The notes below the pieces were generated by a model. That model was not told where the DNA came from and made no database searches. It saw only the letters and a list, made by a program, of their open reading frames with translations. Both the position numbers and the translations under genes were made by a program. Positions 14,189 through 42,046 of a stretch of 64,000 nucleotides of DNA are shown here, piece after piece (the stretch's first letter is position 1; every line of letters starts with the position of its first letter). The stretch lies in NCBI GenBank assembly GCA_017999345.1, contig JAGNLY010000001.1:156535-220534 (forward strand). Reading direction: 5' to 3'. This DNA is from Candidatus Woesebacteria bacterium (GTDB taxonomy: Bacteria > Patescibacteriota > Microgenomatia > UBA1400 > PJMF01).

Positions 14189-14866
14189 ATGGATGCTATT
14201 ACTTACTTCATTAATTTTATTTTACATTTAGACAAGCACTTAGCTGAGATAATTGCCGCTTATGGATCGCTCACTTACTTAATATTTTTTGGAATTGTTT
14301 TTGCTGAAACTGGATTAGTAATTTTCCCATTTTTACCAGGAGATTCACTTTTATTTGCAGCGGGTACTTTTACCGCACTAGGCTCTTTGCACTTTTTAGC
14401 AACTTTCTTAATTTTATTTGCAGCAGCAGTTCTTGGAGATTCTGTGAACTATTGGATTGGAAATATATTTGGAAAGAAAATTGTCGATAATCCAAAAATT
14501 ACTTTTGTTAATCAAGAGCATATCGATAAAACAGAAGCCTTTTATAAAAAATATGGTGCTAAAACCATTATTTTAGCCAGATTTGTGCCAATAGTTAGAA
14601 CTTTTGCTCCATTTGTTGCGGGTGTAGGTAAGATGAACTACCAACATTTTTTTGTCTATAATATTGTCGGTGCATTTGTTTGGGTTGGCATATTTATGAC
14701 TTTGGGTTATTTCTTTGGCAATGTTGAAATAGTTAAAGAACATTTTTCTTTGGCAATGTTGGCTATCATTGGCATTTCTGTCTTACCAATGGCTTATGAA
14801 TATATTAAACATAAAAACAGTCCATCTACACCACAAAGAATATTAGAAAAAGATGTCAACAAATAA
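14189..14866 (+). CDS. DedA/SNARE-associated family membrane protein
   Basis: Carries the DedA signature VFAETGLVIFPFLPGDSLLFAAG...ILARFVPIVRTFAPFVAG. GGAGG lies 8 nt upstream of ATG 14189; the track start at 14174 is TTG inside the RBS. Confidence 0.8.
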   Translation: MDAITYFINFILHLDKHLAEIIAAYGSLTYLIFFGIVFAETGLVIFPFLPGDSLLFAAGTFTALGSLHFLATFLILFAAAVLGDSVNYWIGNIFGKKIVDNPKITFVNQEHIDKTEAFYKKYGAKTIILARFVPIVRTFAPFVAGVGKMNYQHFFVYNIVGAFVWVGIFMTLGYFFGNVEIVKEHFSLAMLAIIGISVLPMAYEYIKHKNSPSTPQRILEKDVNK

Positions 14867-15449
14867 AGAAATTGAGTATCCGTCTTCGTTGCAGCCAATA
14901 CCAGAAAATGCAAAGTTAGTTTTTAAGGGTTTGATTTTCGAAGTCTGGCAATGGCAGCAAACAATGTTTGATGGAACCGTCAAGACTTTTGAAAAAGCAA
15001 AAAGAAGATCATCTGTGGGAATTTTACCAATTACTAAAGACGGTAAAATCATAATTTCATATCAGCAACAACCACAAATGAGGCCATTTATTAGTTTGCT
15101 TGGTGGAGTAGTTGATGAGGGCGAAGATCCATTTGATGCAGCTGAGCGAGAGCTTTTGGAAGAAGCTGGGATGAAAGCTGAAAAAATAGATTTATGGTTT
15201 GCAGTGCAACCTGTGACTAAAGTTGAGTGGCCAATCTATATTTACATTGCTAAGGGTTGTGAGGAAATTGCTAATCAGAATTTAGACTCTGGGGAGAAAA
15301 TTGAAATCAAAAAGATAGATTGGGAAGAGTTTAAAGATTTGGTTTTGGATGAAAATTTTAGAGATTCAGAAATAAAATACAGCTTTTTGAAAGCCATGCA
15401 AGAAGATGGCGGACTGGAAAAACTTAAGAATTTTATTTTTTCAAAATAA
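14853..15449 (+). CDS. NUDIX hydrolase (ADP-ribose pyrophosphatase-like), intact Nudix box
   Basis: GGVVDEGEDPFDAAERELLEEAGM fits the signature GX5EX7REUXEEXGU. Confidence 0.8.
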   Translation: MSTNKEIEYPSSLQPIPENAKLVFKGLIFEVWQWQQTMFDGTVKTFEKAKRRSSVGILPITKDGKIIISYQQQPQMRPFISLLGGVVDEGEDPFDAAERELLEEAGMKAEKIDLWFAVQPVTKVEWPIYIYIAKGCEEIANQNLDSGEKIEIKKIDWEEFKDLVLDENFRDSEIKYSFLKAMQEDGGLEKLKNFIFSK

Positions 15450-20436: not shown

Positions 20437-22116
20437 TTAATTTTGTTTAAGTTTTGCTAAATTAATATTTACCATCTCTTTTTGAAGTAACATTTTTATT
20501 AAGACTGCAATTGTGACATTATCCCATCTTAAAGATCTAATTCCTTCAACAGCATCAAATATCGAGATCGCTCGCCAAGGTTTAGTAGAATTATTAATTG
20601 TCTCCGCAGTTGTTTCATTGTTGGCAAAACCAATATTATGGTGGTCACGATGTATACCGCTATTTCTACTAAATGGACACTCTAGGTGTTGATCAAAGTT
20701 ATTTGGATCATCGCGCCAGATTGTTAGCTGTTCGCCTCCATCTCTCCAGTTTTGGACAACTTCCATGGCAATTGAAAGATCACTGATGTTTTCACCAGTT
20801 AGTGTGGTTTCTTTAAGTGTTAAAATTTCATTTTCAAATAGCCAAGTACCCAACATTGCAATTGAAAAAGAATCGGTAAAAGAATGACCATCTCTAATGG
20901 CATTAATTGTGTCTTCTATTTTCATCCAAGTTGGAACTAGTTGCTCAACATTTTTAAGCGGCTCAGTTGATTTGGAGCCGGTGGGATTAAATTCAAGCTC
21001 ATCAGGAATTTGAACTGTTATTTGTCTTGAATGAACGTCTTCAAGGACTGTGTCTGATTTCATCATTTTCTGGCTCTTTATTTTTACAGAGGTTTCACTT
21101 GTAATACCAACTTCATTTTCTAAAATATAGTTTGCCAAAATAGAGTTAATGATTTTTCTAATATTAAATCCTCTAGGTAGTTCGTAAGCAATTCCTTCAA
21201 ATCCTTCTGCTTGACCATTTAATCTATTCAATTGAATTACCATGATGTGTGCTTCGCCATTAATATTTGTAGTGATTGTGTAGGTTGATCCTTCATGAAT
21301 TTCTTGTGTTTCCGGGTTTACTTCACTGCGATTAATTAACCTTGTTCGAGTCGAACCATCTTTCATTTTAAATACAACTACAGAATAAAATTTATCACTA
21401 GCTTGAGAAAAAGTTATTCCTTCAGCACCTTCCATTACATTTGATTGTTCACTTTCTTTAACAATTAAATTTGGAGATAAAGGTATTCTTTTGCCATCAT
21501 ATTCAGCTTCAACTTTTTGGTAATGAGCATTAATAAAATCAAATTGCTCTTGTGTAAGTCGAATTGATTCAAATGAAGGGGAATTTTCAGCCATCCTTTG
21601 CATTTCTTGACTATTTCCTGTCAAACAAACTGGAAAAGAAGCAGGAAGCGATTTTTTCTCCATGATTATGGACATCAATAGTTGTTTTGGAGCTTCGCCA
21701 ATCAACGGAGGACCTGGGTCCATTGCAAAAGTTACCATAAATAAATTTTCTGCAATTTGTTGGACAGGTGGTACTTCTTCATATTCCATTCCTTTTAGTA
21801 TTTCTCTTTTGAATAATAAAGGAGTATGTCTAACTTCTTTTTTTCCATGTTCATTAACAACCTCAACGGCCAATAATTGGCTAGGAGTATGCATGACAAA
21901 TGAGCCATCAAGATTTGTTGGCAGTTCTGCAATCCGAAACTCATTAAACTCATGTTGTTTAAGAAATTGGTTTAACGCATCTCGATATCTTTCTAGATTT
22001 TCAATGGAATTTGCCAATGGTTCACGACTAAATCGATTGCCAGCGCTCACCACAAATTGTTCAAGAACAGTTCCTCTTTGTGTGATATTTTGGACAAACC
22101 TTTCCTGTCTATTCAT
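20437..22116 (-). CDS. Orphan 559-aa protein with internal degenerate Nudix-like core
   Basis: AAGGA lies 7 nt upstream of ATG 22116 (the track TTG at 22131 is less likely). The start overlaps the upstream stop by 8 nt (ATGAATAG). Residues around INGEAHIMVIQLNRLNG...YELPRGFNIRKIINSILANYILENEVGI align with the 235-aa protein and with Nudix-box spacing. No TM or signal sequence. Confidence 0.75.
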   Translation of the reverse strand: MNRQERFVQNITQRGTVLEQFVVSAGNRFSREPLANSIENLERYRDALNQFLKQHEFNEFRIAELPTNLDGSFVMHTPSQLLAVEVVNEHGKKEVRHTPLLFKREILKGMEYEEVPPVQQIAENLFMVTFAMDPGPPLIGEAPKQLLMSIIMEKKSLPASFPVCLTGNSQEMQRMAENSPSFESIRLTQEQFDFINAHYQKVEAEYDGKRIPLSPNLIVKESEQSNVMEGAEGITFSQASDKFYSVVVFKMKDGSTRTRLINRSEVNPETQEIHEGSTYTITTNINGEAHIMVIQLNRLNGQAEGFEGIAYELPRGFNIRKIINSILANYILENEVGITSETSVKIKSQKMMKSDTVLEDVHSRQITVQIPDELEFNPTGSKSTEPLKNVEQLVPTWMKIEDTINAIRDGHSFTDSFSIAMLGTWLFENEILTLKETTLTGENISDLSIAMEVVQNWRDGGEQLTIWRDDPNNFDQHLECPFSRNSGIHRDHHNIGFANNETTAETINNSTKPWRAISIFDAVEGIRSLRWDNVTIAVLIKMLLQKEMVNINLAKLKQN

Positions 22117-23599
22117 GTTTTTGTCCTTCAAAAATTTTTTTCATAGAGGTTCTAAACCAATCTGCTAAAAGATAATGGATGGGCACTTCAATTACTAACT
22201 CACCAATACTAATTTTTGCCACGCTATCTATTGCGGATGGATTTTCTACAGTTGGCCTAAGCCTAAGACCATATTTTTCTGGCGTTGATTTAATAGATTT
22301 ACTTTTTGGTGCGGCCAATCCTTCTTCAGATGGCATGGTTCTGTGAAATGCAAAATTGGTCCTCCAAGGACTTAATTTATTAAAATTTAGGTTTCCTAAA
22401 TGTCTGAGTTTTGCTACGTCAGTTTCTGGAGCATCTGTCAAGCCATCACCAAATTGATAATGCAAGGTTGCTGCTTGATTGTCATTTTCAATAATTGTTT
22501 TTATTTTAATTGCTAAAGTTTCTATTGCTAGTTTAACAAATTCTTTATCGTTCATTAAACTTTTATAAAGATCCTCTGATTTTTCAGCATCTTGCTCGCT
22601 GACTAAGCCTTTTAAAATCGCAACTTCTTTAAGCAATGCTTCTTTGAAGTTCGGAGTAAGTATTCCTAAAACTTTCATCACTTGTTCTGGAATATTTTTG
22701 TATGATTCTAAGTTAAATAAATTTTCTTGTGCGAAATCTTGTAAAAATTTATTGTAGAAAAATCTTGGATTCTTATCTACAGAATCAGATCCAGAGGAAA
22801 TCCAAGCTACAGTGGGAATTTTTTGCCACGACTCAACGTCTAGCTCAGTTGCTTTTTGTTTATATATTTCTTCACTTTCAATCCAAAAATCGGTAATTTG
22901 TCTAGTTAAATTTTCTAAATTTAAAGATTCATTAGTTTGGGTTGTTGATATTTCAATATTAATTGCAGTTTGATCAATTTCACTTTGCCCAGTTAAGATT
23001 CCTGCAAGTTGTAAAAGTTTTTGAATATATTTTTGCAGATCATCTTGAGAAACCTTATCAGAAAGGATTGGTTCAACAGCAATTTTAAGTTTTAAATTTG
23101 CTTTAATAAATGCATCTTTTTTTTGGTATTGAGAGACAATCTCCATGAGCCCAACAATATTTTTGACTACTGCTAGTTCATTAATTGTTAAGATATCAGG
23201 GTTAATTTCACCCACCCAAAGAATTCCAAGATCAAGTTCTAATGGTTGTTTATTATTTAATGTCTCTATCACTTTTTGTTGTCGATTGCTCTGTATTTCT
23301 GCAGATAAACCGCTGGTTCTCATTTCGGCAGATGGATATAACTTCCATGCAATTTCATCTTCCCAAGTCTGTACACTTTCTGGAATTCTTTCGTTTTCTT
23401 TGGAATTTACAAAACTACCTGGATCTAATATTGTTTCTGCAATTTTTTGAGCGATGAGCTCTGCTTCAGGAAGTGCTGGATCTGTTTCAACGACAAGCTT
23501 ATCTTTGACCACTTGAACTTTTTCTAGTTGTGGCGAACCGGCAGCTATTTTTTCTAGCTGATCCTGAATTGATTGCCATTGTTCTGTCTTACTAATCAT
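22109..23599 (-). CDS. Orphan 496-aa protein, unknown function
   Basis: Long uninterrupted ORF. The track start at 23794 runs back through an intrinsic terminator and into the upstream gene, so ATG 23599 (MISKTEQWQ...) is preferred and ATG 23674 is the alternative. I recognise no motif. Confidence 0.7.
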   Translation of the reverse strand: MISKTEQWQSIQDQLEKIAAGSPQLEKVQVVKDKLVVETDPALPEAELIAQKIAETILDPGSFVNSKENERIPESVQTWEDEIAWKLYPSAEMRTSGLSAEIQSNRQQKVIETLNNKQPLELDLGILWVGEINPDILTINELAVVKNIVGLMEIVSQYQKKDAFIKANLKLKIAVEPILSDKVSQDDLQKYIQKLLQLAGILTGQSEIDQTAINIEISTTQTNESLNLENLTRQITDFWIESEEIYKQKATELDVESWQKIPTVAWISSGSDSVDKNPRFFYNKFLQDFAQENLFNLESYKNIPEQVMKVLGILTPNFKEALLKEVAILKGLVSEQDAEKSEDLYKSLMNDKEFVKLAIETLAIKIKTIIENDNQAATLHYQFGDGLTDAPETDVAKLRHLGNLNFNKLSPWRTNFAFHRTMPSEEGLAAPKSKSIKSTPEKYGLRLRPTVENPSAIDSVAKISIGELVIEVPIHYLLADWFRTSMKKIFEGQKHE

Positions 23600-23634
23600 A
23601 ATAAAAATAGTTAAATCAATCTTTAAATTACCAA

Positions 23635-23665
23635 AAACTAATACTTTTTGATTAAGTATTAGTTT
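23635..23665. promoter_or_regulatory. Perfect 12-bp inverted repeat (AAACTAATACTT-7 nt-AAGTATTAGTTT), candidate operator or 5' hairpin
   Basis: Read directly from the sequence. On the minus strand it starts immediately after a TATACT -10-like hexamer (23671..23666), between the terminator and the 496-aa gene start. Confidence 0.45.
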
Positions 23666-23730
23666 AGTATACATTTTTTGAGTAATGTTGGGGAGGGGGT
23701 GGACAGTGTTGGTGGGTCTACATTTGGGAA

Positions 23731-23760
23731 CAGAAAAGGGCGACCTTGCGGTCGCCCTTT
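23731..23760 (-). terminator. Rho-independent terminator after the 235-aa gene
   Basis: The minus strand reads AAAGGGCGACC-GCAA-GGTCGCCCTTTTCTG: an 8-11 bp GC stem, a GNRA loop and a U-tract. It lies 19 nt after the stop at 23779. Confidence 0.8.
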
Positions 23761-23778
23761 GCGTTCTGTATTGCTGGA

Positions 23779-24486
23779 TTATTCGTCTGGCCAAAGGGCA
23801 TCTTTGAGAAGCCCAATGCCGGCTACGGTGAACATGTCATCCATGTCAGCGTTCTGCAGAATCTTACTGACGGGCATGAAGATGCTCGCCACAAGACGTT
23901 TACCTGCAACATCTTCTTTATCTGAGGGAATCACTTCATTTTTGAATTTGAAGTATCCCATTCCAGAAATCAGTTGCAGCGCTCGTTTGTTGACGAGCAA
24001 TGAAAAGAACCGACAGCCCTCGCCTTGATTGGTTAGCAACCAAGCAGAGTTGCTGTTGAGTGCATTGCCAAGAGGATTTGTTTTGAACGGAACGTCCAAA
24101 CCAAATTCCACTTTAGCTGTTTCTTCCGCCAAGGTCAGGTGTTGCTGGCCTGGCTTCAAAAATGCTCGCGGCAGATTCAAAACTTCGCGACCGTTTCTCA
24201 TCTCACGAATGACAGCGACGTGAAGGTTTTTGCGTGTGTGTTCTCCATTAAAGAAGTACGCCACGCTAATGCTTCCACCACCACCTTTTTCGGTGGTAAC
24301 GAATGCATCATAACCTTCAGGTCGTTTACCATAGGAGATGGCTGCGCCAAGCCGTTCCTGGAAGGTATCAATCTTTGCGACTGCGGCCATGTCAATGACA
24401 GCCCCGTCTTTCAAAGTGATGATGCCAGTCCATCCTTGACCATCATTGATGGTCACGGGTCGTACGAATTCTCTTGCAGTAGTCAT
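23779..24486 (-). CDS. 235-aa Nudix/ADP-ribose-pyrophosphatase-like fold protein with degenerate Nudix box; G+C-rich
   Basis: AAAGGAAAAG lies 5 nt upstream of ATG 24486 (MTTAREF). VAVIREMRNGREVLNLPRAFLKPGQQHLTLAEETAKVEFGL has ADPRase-like spacing, but only the final E-x-G-U of the Nudix signature is kept. The C-terminal DMFTVAGIGLL resembles the ADPRase C-terminal helix. Sampled lines give about 47% G+C. Confidence 0.7.
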   Translation of the reverse strand: MTTAREFVRPVTINDGQGWTGIITLKDGAVIDMAAVAKIDTFQERLGAAISYGKRPEGYDAFVTTEKGGGGSISVAYFFNGEHTRKNLHVAVIREMRNGREVLNLPRAFLKPGQQHLTLAEETAKVEFGLDVPFKTNPLGNALNSNSAWLLTNQGEGCRFFSLLVNKRALQLISGMGYFKFKNEVIPSDKEDVAGKRLVASIFMPVSKILQNADMDDMFTVAGIGLLKDALWPDE

Positions 24487-24574
24487 GTTACTTTTCCTTT
24501 CGCATTGGCCTACTGGCCTCCGCACTAAGATTATTTTGCTCTTGGTCTACTGACTTCGAGCGCTTTGATTGTCC

Positions 24575-24594
24575 ACCTTCCAAACATGGAAGGT
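24575..24594 (-). promoter_or_regulatory. Small hairpin in the 5' leader of the 235-aa gene
   Basis: ACCTTCCA-AACA-TGGAAGGT: an 8-bp perfect stem with a 4-nt loop, about 90 nt upstream of the start codon. Confidence 0.4.
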
Positions 24595-24613
24595 AAGAAT
24601 CTGGAATCTTTTG

Positions 24614-24729
24614 TTCACAGATCCAGTTTAGGGGCGCGAGTTTCATTTTTTTTGTCAAACTAGGGTTTTTGCAAAATTGAGCAAAAAATTAAAAAAAAAC
24701 TTGAAACACCACCAAACTGGATCTGTGAA
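24614..24729. repeat. 116-bp palindromic element with 16-bp perfect terminal inverted repeats
   Basis: TTCACAGATCCAGTTT (24614-24629) and AAACTGGATCTGTGAA (24714-24729) are exact reverse complements. Inner arms also pair: GTTTCA+T8 with A8-9+TGAAAC, and an apical TTTTTGC-8 nt-GCAAAAA. Confidence 0.7.
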
Positions 24730-24767
24730 AAAGGAAAATATTATCCAACAATTTATTAAAGAACGAT

Positions 24768-24869
24768 GGTTTTTAGTTTAGTGAGTCGACAAAGTGGGAA
24801 AAATCCTACAAGTCAACTCAATCAACGATGACTGGAAACCAAAACCAGTCAAAGTGTTCTAAACTAACC
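24768..24869 (-). ncRNA. Candidate structured RNA (unclassified three-stem element) at the 5' end of the minus-strand transcript
   Basis: Closing stem TTAGTTTAG (24773-81) / CTAAACTAA (24859-67), plus flanking GG/CC. Long hairpin GAGTCGAC..GTGGGA-AAAA-TCCTAC..GTCAACTC (24783-24819). Hairpin TGACTGG-9 nt-CCAGTCA (24829-24851). The predicted TSS of the adjacent promoter falls on the closing stem. Strand is assigned from the promoter only. Confidence 0.4.
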
Positions 24870-24872
24870 TAT

Positions 24873-24901
24873 AGTATATCAATATAATCAACAAATGTCA
24901 A
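24873..24901 (-). promoter_or_regulatory. Near-consensus sigma70-type promoter (TTGACA-17-TATACT) on the minus strand
   Basis: The reverse complement of 24873-24901 reads TTGACA TTTGTTGATTATATTGA TATACT. Confidence 0.6.
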
Positions 24902-41303: not shown

Positions 41304-41518
41304 GTGAGATAAATTAGTTTTTTGAATTAAAGCAATTCAATTTAACACTAATTTATCGATCAAAACGCACATTAATAACTTGCAAAATACTTTATCCAAA
41401 TGAGTAGCACTTTGGGAATCATTGATTATGGTTCTTGAGGCGCTACTCATTCACATGAGTTGACATTACTCCAACTGGAGCGATGACAAACATTCATTCA
41501 AAAAAAGGATTAGACACC
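41304..41518 (+). promoter_or_regulatory. Structured 5' leader with alternative hairpins (candidate riboregulator)
   Basis: Hairpin 1 pairs GATAAATTAGT (41308-18) with ACTAATTTATC (41347-57), with an inner TTGAATT/AATTCAA stem. ATGAGTAGC (41400-08) pairs with GCTACTCAT (41442-50), and part of the latter can instead pair with ATGAGT (41455-60). Confidence 0.4.
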
Positions 41519-42046
41519 ATGAAAAAGAATATCACTATCCTAGTTCTTGCACTTGTTTTACTGTTTTTAGCCGGGATTTACAGAAAAGACGAGGCCCGGA
41601 TCTTGGAATTGGAGACGCAAGTCTCTGAGCTCCAAGAAAAAAACAACGCGTTTGCCGATCATGCCGTTGCTCTTCAAGAGCAGTTGGCTACTCTTGATTA
41701 CAATAATACTGTGATCAAGATTGTGGACAAGCAGGGGCTTTTGAATGACAGTCTTGTGTTGGGCCCATCGTTTGTTGTCTTGGAAGATGAGCTCCACTCA
41801 AAAAATGGAGAAGTTCGTCTTGTCAACACTCTGCTGGAAGCAGGGAGTAACAACTCCCTGTGGCTGTATGATGGTAGCACGGGCGAAAAGACTTATCTCA
41901 ACGCGTTCGCCGGAGAAACCGTCATTTTAAATGCGGGACCAGCGAATGAAGTAGGAGAAGTTTACCTTCAATACACAACCTGTTACACGAATAACAATTT
42001 CGCGTGTATCGGGAAGGTTTATCCAACTTCCATCAAAATCAAATAA
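41519..42046 (+). CDS. G+C-rich 175-aa membrane-anchored/secreted protein, unknown function
   Basis: ATG 41519 gives MKKNITILVLALVLLFLAG (a signal/anchor) with AAAGGA 10 nt upstream. The track start at 41483 adds 12 aa. A coiled-coil segment is followed by a beta-rich domain. Sampled lines give about 47-52% G+C. Confidence 0.65.
   Translation: MKKNITILVLALVLLFLAGIYRKDEARILELETQVSELQEKNNAFADHAVALQEQLATLDYNNTVIKIVDKQGLLNDSLVLGPSFVVLEDELHSKNGEVRLVNTLLEAGSNNSLWLYDGSTGEKTYLNAFAGETVILNAGPANEVGEVYLQYTTCYTNNNFACIGKVYPTSIKIK

Follow-up and report, generated by a model that had tools for sequence, protein, structure and literature searches.

A recurrent Patescibacteria gene set with a box-eroded Nudix relative, a candidate second Nudix-derived module and a structured leader RNA

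A 64,000-nucleotide (nt) stretch of a Candidatus Woesebacteria genome (GenBank assembly GCA_017999345.1, contig JAGNLY010000001.1, positions 156,535 to 220,534 of the forward strand), referred to below as the window and numbered from its own first letter, carries three consecutive open reading frames (ORFs) on the minus strand between positions 20437 and 24486. We call these genes A, B and C in the order in which they are read. An original prediction made from the letters of the window had proposed that the orphan protein of 559 amino acids (aa) encoded by C contains an internal copy of the degenerate Nudix-like core of the 235-aa protein encoded by A. The ORF of C is as that prediction described it, with an ATG at 22116 and a stop codon at 20437-20439. 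Proteins A and C are each identical to a 'hypothetical protein' in a metagenome-assembled genome of Candidatus Woesebacteria, that for C being KA111_01025 at NCBI. The features of the locus are collected in Table 1.

Table 1. Features of the A-B-C locus and of the Nudix hydrolase used for contrast (window numbering)
Feature	Position	Strand	Basis
Bona fide Nudix hydrolase, 198 aa, intact box	14853..15449	+	Pfam NUDIX 6.4e-14; contrast and positive control
Gene C, 559-aa orphan protein	20437..22116	-	ORF list; identical NCBI hypothetical protein KA111_01025
Putative degenerate Nudix-like module of C, residues 286-425	20842..21261	-	hhalign, shuffles, ORF ranking
Nudix box remnant in C, GFNIRKIINSILANYILENEVGI (G316...E335-x-G337-I338)	21103..21171	-	Family alignment
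Gene B, ~496 aa	22109..23599	-	Stop overlaps C start by 8 nt; start of homologue alignment
GC-rich terminator hairpin directly after the A stop	23729..23769	-	Sequence; five-locus comparison
Gene A, 235-aa divergent Nudix-family protein with degenerate box	23779..24486	-	Profile searches, hhalign
Degenerate Nudix box of A, AFLKPGQQHLTLAEETAKVEFGL	24097..24165	-	Column counts against the wider family
Leader region of A, including promoter-like site	24487-24901	-	Alignment of 11 A loci
Hairpin GGCC-AGUA-GGCC just upstream of the A ribosome-binding site	24507..24518	-	11-locus alignment
Long hairpin of the A leader, 24-nt arms	24611..24732	-	Inverted repeat; arms differ yet stay complementary elsewhere
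5' leader domain: three-way junction of P1, P2 (invariant loop UUUUGGU) and P3, with invariant tail AACCAUCGUUCUUUAA	24745..24871	-	Covariance model
Promoter-like site TTGACA-17-TATACT, TG-extended	24873..24901	-	Conserved in other loci

Protein A is certainly a relative of the Nudix family, resembling the NudE/ADP-sugar pyrophosphatases, and its Nudix box is eroded. Taken alone, the protein has no Pfam PF00293 or NCBIfam Nudix match at E<=1 and none in PADLOC or PHROG. A sequence search among 5.8 billion proteins gave 10 A-like proteins and 5 that resemble C, and an exhaustive HMMER search with a profile of the A subfamily returned 287 proteins at E<=1e-3, with 147 of them reaching E<=1e-10 and almost all having a length of 210-270 aa. 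We aligned 88 of these 287 relatives, a set that we call the deep A family, and 74 of the 88 are matched by Pfam NUDIX and 38 by the NCBIfam model 'ADP compounds hydrolase NudE'. When compared with known structures, the profile of this family matches NUDT5, the M. tuberculosis ADP-ribose pyrophosphatase (ADPRase) and T. thermophilus Ndx at ~1e-8 to 1e-6, and an hhalign comparison of A with the Nudix family from which A's own subfamily had been removed gives P=8e-41. The original prediction of a degenerate Nudix core in A is therefore well founded, and the intact box that it had ascribed to the 198-aa hydrolase elsewhere in the window is also present; this true Nudix protein aligns with the A family in hhalign at P=2e-8 (95%).

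The residues that have been lost from the box can be read directly from the alignments. The wider A family retains an intact box, PRGFLxPGExHxxxAxRExxEExG, and in 83 wider-family sequences its successive positions are occupied by G (79), E (66), R (69), E (82), E (77), E (79) and G (68). The 23-residue box of A carries A108, Q114, E122, T123, A124, V126, E127, G129 and L130, and thus lacks the complete signature GX5EX7REUXEEXGU with its catalytic R-E and E-E. This erosion extends through the A subfamily (n=10), whose members are 50-82% identical across the whole protein. The first G has become A in 10/10, the R of the RE pair is absent from 10/10, and its E is replaced by T, A or V in 10/10. 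The first box E is variously Q, E or K, with E114 kept in three of the ten, and the EE pair is kept in eight, the A protein of the window having VE instead (E126->V). Because the R-E pair, which serves in metal binding and catalysis, and the initial G of the box are both gone from the subfamily, A is most likely a protein that binds a nucleotide-diphosphate-X compound rather than one that cleaves it, and its hydrolase activity has very probably been lost.

The C family is very rare, with only eight members known. When an alignment of seven C sequences was used as the query in a third homologue search, only five already known proteins were returned, and genome and metagenome scans for C relatives yielded nothing beyond two known contigs. 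Protein C matches no Pfam, NCBIfam, PADLOC or PHROG family, and shallow profiles of C, A and B found no match among the sequences of the PDB.

The case for a Nudix-like region in C was originally made by aligning three of its segments with A by eye, and this alignment taken alone does not exceed what chance would produce. In BLASTP the two proteins match at E=0.58, with segment 1 alone as the best local alignment, and hhalign of the shallow C and A profiles gives P=0.24 (P=0.21 with permissive settings). The three segments do reappear when the C profile is compared with the deep A family, where hhalign recovers them in a single collinear alignment of 123 columns (C 286-425 opposite A 80-227). 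Against this 88-sequence family, full-length C gives P=5.5e-4 to 1.5e-3 (probability 16-30%) and C 270-430 gives P=8.4e-5 (60%). The score rose on addition of an eighth C sequence, from the locus that we label L010, the corresponding values being P=2.9e-4 (40%) and P=3.7e-5 (71%). A larger set of 144 relatives, from which the A subfamily is excluded, again brings out the three segments in collinear order and is matched by C 270-430 at P=2.4e-4 (43%) and by full-length C at P=1.4e-3 (18%). The full-length match is confined to C 286-341 and A 80-133, which correspond to segments 1 and 2, and the third segment, IRDGHSFTDSFSIAMLG, is found in the C 270-430 alignment opposite the DMFTxAG helix of the family. 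The HHalign comparison suggested along with the original prediction is thus negative with shallow profiles and borderline with the wider family (P=3.7e-5 to 1.4e-3).

Several controls were applied to this match. In none of 400 column shuffles of the C block was the real score of 34.3 reached (maximum 27.4, mean 13.7, standard deviation 2.7). Among the 46 ORFs of the window that encode at least 150 aa, each compared as a single sequence, C ranks third at P=0.002 with the same region aligned, behind A (1e-61) and the true Nudix hydrolase (1e-7), and the next unrelated ORF reaches 0.016-0.03. As negative controls against the Nudix family in hhalign, protein B gives P=0.3-0.7 and the N- and C-terminal thirds of C give P=0.02-0.11. 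The conserved columns brought together by the alignment are R298, E312, R315, F317, G337 and F413...A420 on the side of C, and R97, P106-F109, E127, G129 and D217...G223 on the side of A. Taken together, these comparisons suggest that residues 286-425 of C are probably a Nudix-derived domain.

If homologous, the C module has lost even more of its box than A. The 23 residues GFNIRKIINSILANYILENEVGI at 21103-21171 retain only G316, E335, G337 and I338 of the Nudix positions, and across the aligned family G337 never varies, two of seven sequences have Q in place of E335, and the RE and EE positions are lost from all members. Such a module would be an independent and older offshoot of the wider family and not the internal copy of A that had been envisaged, because C has PRGF like the family consensus where A has PRAF, and because the family without A is matched far better (P=2.4e-4) than is the A subfamily alone (P=0.24).

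The flanking parts of C comprise ~285 N-terminal and ~134 C-terminal residues, instead of the ~230 and ~110 first estimated. The histidine-rich patch GIHRDHHNIG, which had been noted as a feature of the C-terminal part, is not kept in homologues (NSGIFRTFPGVG, NSGINRRWHHIG, NNGNSRLYFDIG etc.), and the only invariant residues of this region in the C family are N485, G487 and G496. We therefore rejected the patch as a metal site, since its histidines are not conserved, and its distribution in the alignment marks it as lineage-specific. Protein C also contains two similar helix motifs at residues 396-430 and 514-548 (window 20482-20929), which can be written W.K..D...AI.DG..F.D.FSIAMLG.WLF and W..V.L.E.V.GI...WDNVTIAA..K.LLQ (hhalign P=0.009), and an 'NSG' at 485-487 that resembles the NPNSAFF motif of the Nudix family. 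These repeat motifs and the NSG could be what is left of a second eroded module, or could mean that the domain boundary lies elsewhere.

The Nudix ancestry of the C module must be weighed against the simpler explanation that C has no Nudix-derived domain at all, and that its PRGF, E-x-G and D-x-F-[ST]-x-A elements are coincidental resemblances that were noticed as the two genes adjoin. We consider this chance explanation less probable than common descent but well worth keeping in mind, and a number of results speak for it and against a Nudix origin of C. To the pairwise failures described above (E=0.58, P=0.24) can be added that all hhalign probabilities for C stay below 75%, those for full-length C with the larger alignments being 18-40%, that hmmsearch scores are only 4-8 bits, and that the single-sequence P of 0.002 becomes ~0.09 after Bonferroni correction for 46 ORFs. 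Pfam NUDIX (PF00293) matches none of the seven C members searched at E<=10, and a small profile of three canonical Nudix proteins gives P=0.46 with C, although this last control is weak because A's own subfamily also fails it (P=0.09). The claim that C encodes the same fold as A finds marginal statistical backing (P 4e-5 to 1.4e-3) from the family of A and none from these canonical models. Furthermore, the stretch from PRGF to E-x-G carries indels of -4, -2 and +2 in C homologues, which is odd for a Nudix helix; the 23-residue spacing that was originally read in both boxes is present in the two proteins of the window and is not conserved among relatives of C.

Predicted structures are too poor to confirm a Nudix fold for either protein. 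The AlphaFold2 models predate the deep A family and rest on shallow alignments; they reach a mean predicted local distance difference test score (pLDDT) of 42.8 for A (10 sequences) and a pLDDT of 56 for C (5 sequences), falling to 26-46 over residues 300-340 of C, where the putative box lies. A Foldseek search of the PDB with the C model returned only noise, with nothing at E<=0.001, an outcome that is meaningless because the model is too poor. Along the hhalign register, the two low-confidence models show 59% agreement in the order of their secondary-structure elements, compared to 29-44% at most shifts, and agreement is equally 59% at a shift of +6; the two models can be called 'not contradictory' and no more. 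What argues against coincidence is that the real score lies beyond every one of the shuffles, that three separate motifs are collinear and coincide with the columns that vary least in either family, that the family without A is matched at least as well as A's own subfamily, that additional C sequences improve the score, and that the unrelated ORF ranking next scores about 10-fold weaker, with its alignment elsewhere. A different layout of C must also be considered, in which the closing helix is the motif copy at 514-548, displaced by an insertion, or in which C holds two tandem eroded Nudix-like modules. This arrangement would account for the resemblance of C 399-429 to C 518-546 (hhalign P=0.009), for the alignment of 'NSG' within C 483-490 with the family motif NPNSAFF, which in A comes after the box, and for a secondary hhalign match of C 532-544 to A 217-229. 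However, each of these comparisons is non-significant by itself (P=0.009-0.22), C 431-559 reaches only P=0.02-0.04 against the Nudix family, and the best single alignment uses C 407-425, and so we regard such a layout as improbable. A final alternative concerns A, which might still be an active hydrolase that relies on a non-canonical catalytic set, made up of the retained EE and residues outside the box. In some ADPRases the catalytic base lies outside the Nudix box, the relatives of A are ordinary Nudix enzymes, EE and E114 persist in eight and three of the ten subfamily members, and conservation across the whole protein is as strong as would be expected for a defined pocket. Nevertheless, all ten members lack both residues of the RE pair as well as the first G, the A protein of the window has in addition exchanged E126 for V, and established Nudix enzymology holds that loss of box glutamates cuts kcat by 10^3 to 10^5. 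An active A is therefore unlikely, and binding without hydrolysis is the reading that we carry forward.

Gene B adds a third orphan to the set. Its ORF is open as far as a TTG at 23794, extending over the A stop codon and the terminator, and homologues align only from about residue 66 (M66, the ATG at 23599), which indicates that the longer form (23600-23794) is probably not translated. Protein B has no Pfam, NCBIfam, PADLOC, PHROG or PDB match and no detectable relative of known function, and no similarity of B to A or C was found. The B-C pair is the conserved core of the cassette and is present in eight independent loci (the window and those labelled L001, L002, L003, L004, L007/L008, L009 and L010), and the two genes overlap by 4-26 nt in all of them, suggesting translational coupling. 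Gene A precedes B-C in five of the eight loci, and in every further A locus with a visible downstream gene, the next gene is a B homologue or a gene of B size. From this conserved order we conclude that A, B and C are a recurrent gene set of genomes of Patescibacteria (the candidate phyla radiation, CPR). Gene A is absent from the other three B-C loci and is therefore not obligatory for B-C, a point against the combined model given below. Its place is taken by an unrelated gene in L007 and in L009 and is empty in L002, and the two replacing genes have no detectable kinship to A, B, C or each other.

Two observations on the surroundings of the cassette should be recorded. On the 3' side of B-C in four loci (L002:9755-13238, L003:11519-14918, L004:12190-15213 and L010:5469-7479) there is a gene for a MarR-like protein (~150 aa) and/or genes for a YknX-like adaptor, an ATP-binding cassette (ABC) ATPase and a MacB/FtsX permease; the window and L001 have no such genes beside their cassettes. 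Contig CAYWDM010000005.1 (L003/L005) is labelled Pseudomonadales, and its gene content and A-B-C cassette are of Patescibacteria type, such that the label may be wrong.

The sequence upstream of A is as distinctive as the protein. A leader of ~385 nt is conserved at all 11 A loci, and its identity between loci (86%, 72% and 57-63%) is as high as or higher than that of the coding region (73%, 59% and 56-59%). The 5' ~127 nt form a three-way junction when each sequence is folded singly, and a covariance model derived from three sequences yields a single match at each A locus, always upstream of A, with scores of 152 to 34 bits, and no match in L002 or L009. Compensatory changes are found in 21 of the 28 pairs of the junction, and 89.7% of the alignment cells can pair, compared to 29-43% when partners are slid out of register and with 0/500 shuffles reaching the observed value; these figures come from an alignment that was fitted to the model. 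The loop of P2 (GGUUUUGGU) and the tail (AAAACCAUCGUUCUUUAA) are invariant. Parts of the two are mutually complementary, which makes a loop-tail pseudoknot possible.

Downstream of the junction there are the long hairpin, which covaries between loci, and further hairpins, of which the one adjacent to the ribosome-binding site is conserved and varies in a complementary manner across the 11 loci (GGUC/GACC, GACC/GGUC). No Rfam 15 family matches the A leader of the window or of four other loci at E<=0.1-1, and a scan of viral contigs with AACCATCGTTCTTTMA gave 50 loci, of which the covariance model confirmed none. Gene A is its own transcription unit, as judged from the promoter-like site, the conserved leader and a terminator kept in five loci, and its leader is a candidate for a new cis-regulatory RNA or riboswitch. 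In L007 (1-290), where a 247-aa unrelated gene stands in the place of A, the 3' part of the leader is kept upstream, with CTCGTTCTTTAAAAAATTGTTG and two GGCCAGTAGGCC hairpins, and the 5' domain is cut off by the end of the contig. The leader is thus tied to the position in the cassette and not to the Nudix gene as such, because here it precedes a gene that is not homologous to A.

Directly after the A stop codon, AAAGGGCGACC-GCAA-GGTCGCCCTTT followed by TCTGTT forms the terminator hairpin, whose position is kept in five loci while the stem sequences differ and the flanks AGAACG...CGTT are conserved; a consensus scan missed this hairpin. The flank AGAACG is the exact complement of the invariant CGUUCU of the leader. 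An Rfam match to the small RNA MicX (23601-23770, minus strand; 41.7 bits against a gathering score of 75, E=6.5e-7) overlaps the terminator and the AT-rich spacer between A and B, and we treated it as a chance match that is probably driven by the hairpin.

The base composition of A also sets it apart. The original prediction had remarked on the neighborhood of an AT-rich C gene and a G+C-richer A gene, and in a window with 34.7% GC, gene A has 47.9% and C has 34.5%, with GC contents at third codon positions (GC3) of 0.48 for A, 0.23 for C and 0.21 for B. The GC3 of A is the highest among the 46 ORFs of the window. Because the contrast with B and C recurs in L001, L003 and L004, it is a maintained property and not the mark of a recent transfer, and it implies selection at synonymous sites, perhaps for mRNA structure or stability. 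We rejected high expression as its cause, as the genes for EF-Tu and ribosomal proteins in the window reach only 0.15-0.26. The only other ORF with a similar GC3 (0.479), at 41483-42046 on the plus strand, encodes 187 aa with the N-terminal hydrophobic segment MTNIHSKKGLDTMKKNITILVLALV.

These findings can be combined in a model to which, as a whole, we assign a probability of roughly 0.55: a pseudo-Nudix protein A that is separately transcribed, a C protein with a Nudix-descended module, and coupled B and C genes. Protein A and the C module would be two independently eroded descendants of a single NudE/ADPRase-like family, each keeping a pocket for a nucleotide-diphosphate-X compound in the absence of catalysis, in the manner of NrtR. 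Protein C would be a three-part protein whose central ~140 residues (286-425) have lost all catalytic residues and preserve, as remnants, the strand-R...E-L-P-R-G-F entry, the position of the helix, the E-x-G-U that ends the box and a C-terminal helix with the pattern D-x-F-[ST]-x-A. We further propose that translation of B and C is coupled and that their products probably work together as a complex, and that A is made from a separately regulated mRNA whose leader would be a riboswitch-like or protein-binding regulatory RNA. The Nudix ancestry of A, the residues missing from both boxes, the order of the genes and the fold of the leader RNA are shown, whereas the homology of the C module, ligand binding in place of hydrolysis and any contact of A with C, of B with C, or of a protein with the leader are inferred. 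A far more speculative extension, which we think improbable, is that the leader belongs to a riboswitch class not described before, or that A itself binds it as an autoregulatory RNA, and that the pseudo-Nudix sensor A and B-C, with a second pseudo-Nudix domain, constitute a new CPR module for sensing a nucleotide signal, often located beside a MarR regulator and a MacB-type ABC exporter.

Even the firmer parts of this picture are informative. An orphan from the orphan-rich genomes of the candidate phyla radiation can now be assigned with confidence to a known superfamily, where it is probably a pseudoenzyme, and a second orphan gains a testable domain hypothesis. The finding for the proteins would be a pseudo-Nudix domain in a new multidomain and gene context. 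If the C module is not Nudix-like, then what remains is ordinary, namely a divergent and inactive Nudix protein beside two unrelated orphans. The locus gains in value from its leader RNA, which may be the more useful lead, as this well-supported motif has no counterpart in Rfam and precedes a Nudix-type gene, and its ligand, if there is one, would hint at what A and C bind.

Some riboswitches are already known to precede Nudix genes, among them ykkC subtype 2c, which senses nucleoside diphosphates (PMC7266159). The A leader resembles this arrangement in being a structured and conserved 5' leader before a Nudix-family gene. Unlike ykkC, it matches no Rfam 15 family and is built from a three-way junction, a UUUUGGU loop, a AACCAUCGUUCUUUAA tail and further hairpins over ~385 nt. 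Among proteins, the nearest known group is the NudE/ADP-sugar (ADP-ribose) pyrophosphatase branch (PF00293; NF008736; NUDT5, 2dsc/3bm4; M. tuberculosis ADPRase, 1mk1), which is the branch matched by the relatives of A. The strand-R-x(n)-E-h-P-x-G entry, the 23-residue box and the C-terminal D-x-x-[ST]-x-x-[AG]-L helix of these enzymes are present in A and apparently in the C module. In contrast to these enzymes, A has lost the G, R and first E of the signature GX5EX7REUXEEXGU, C keeps little beyond the closing E-x-G-U, and neither protein reaches a Pfam or NCBIfam threshold. In addition, the C module is embedded between ~285 and ~134 residues of other sequence.

For function, a precedent is NrtR, the Nudix-related transcriptional regulator, in which a Nudix-like domain with a degraded box is an ADP-ribose-binding effector domain and not an enzyme (PMC2330246). 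We propose a similar mode of action for the putative binding domains of A and C, which differ from NrtR in that the latter has a C-terminal winged-helix DNA-binding domain (PMC2330246). Pfam and NCBIfam scans found no helix-turn-helix or winged-helix family in A or C, and the MarR-like gene near some cassettes encodes a separate protein. The eukaryotic proteins TRPM2, with its NUDT9-H domain, and DBC1/CCAR2 carry non-catalytic Nudix homology domains within larger multidomain proteins and are thought to bind a NAD-derived nucleotide. They resemble C as proposed here in having an eroded Nudix domain inside a larger protein, and differ from it in being eukaryotic and in having unrelated flanking domains. 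Eroded Nudix domains that serve as nucleotide sensors are thus known from NrtR and TRPM2, and a pair of them within one conserved gene set, as A and C would provide, would be a new arrangement.

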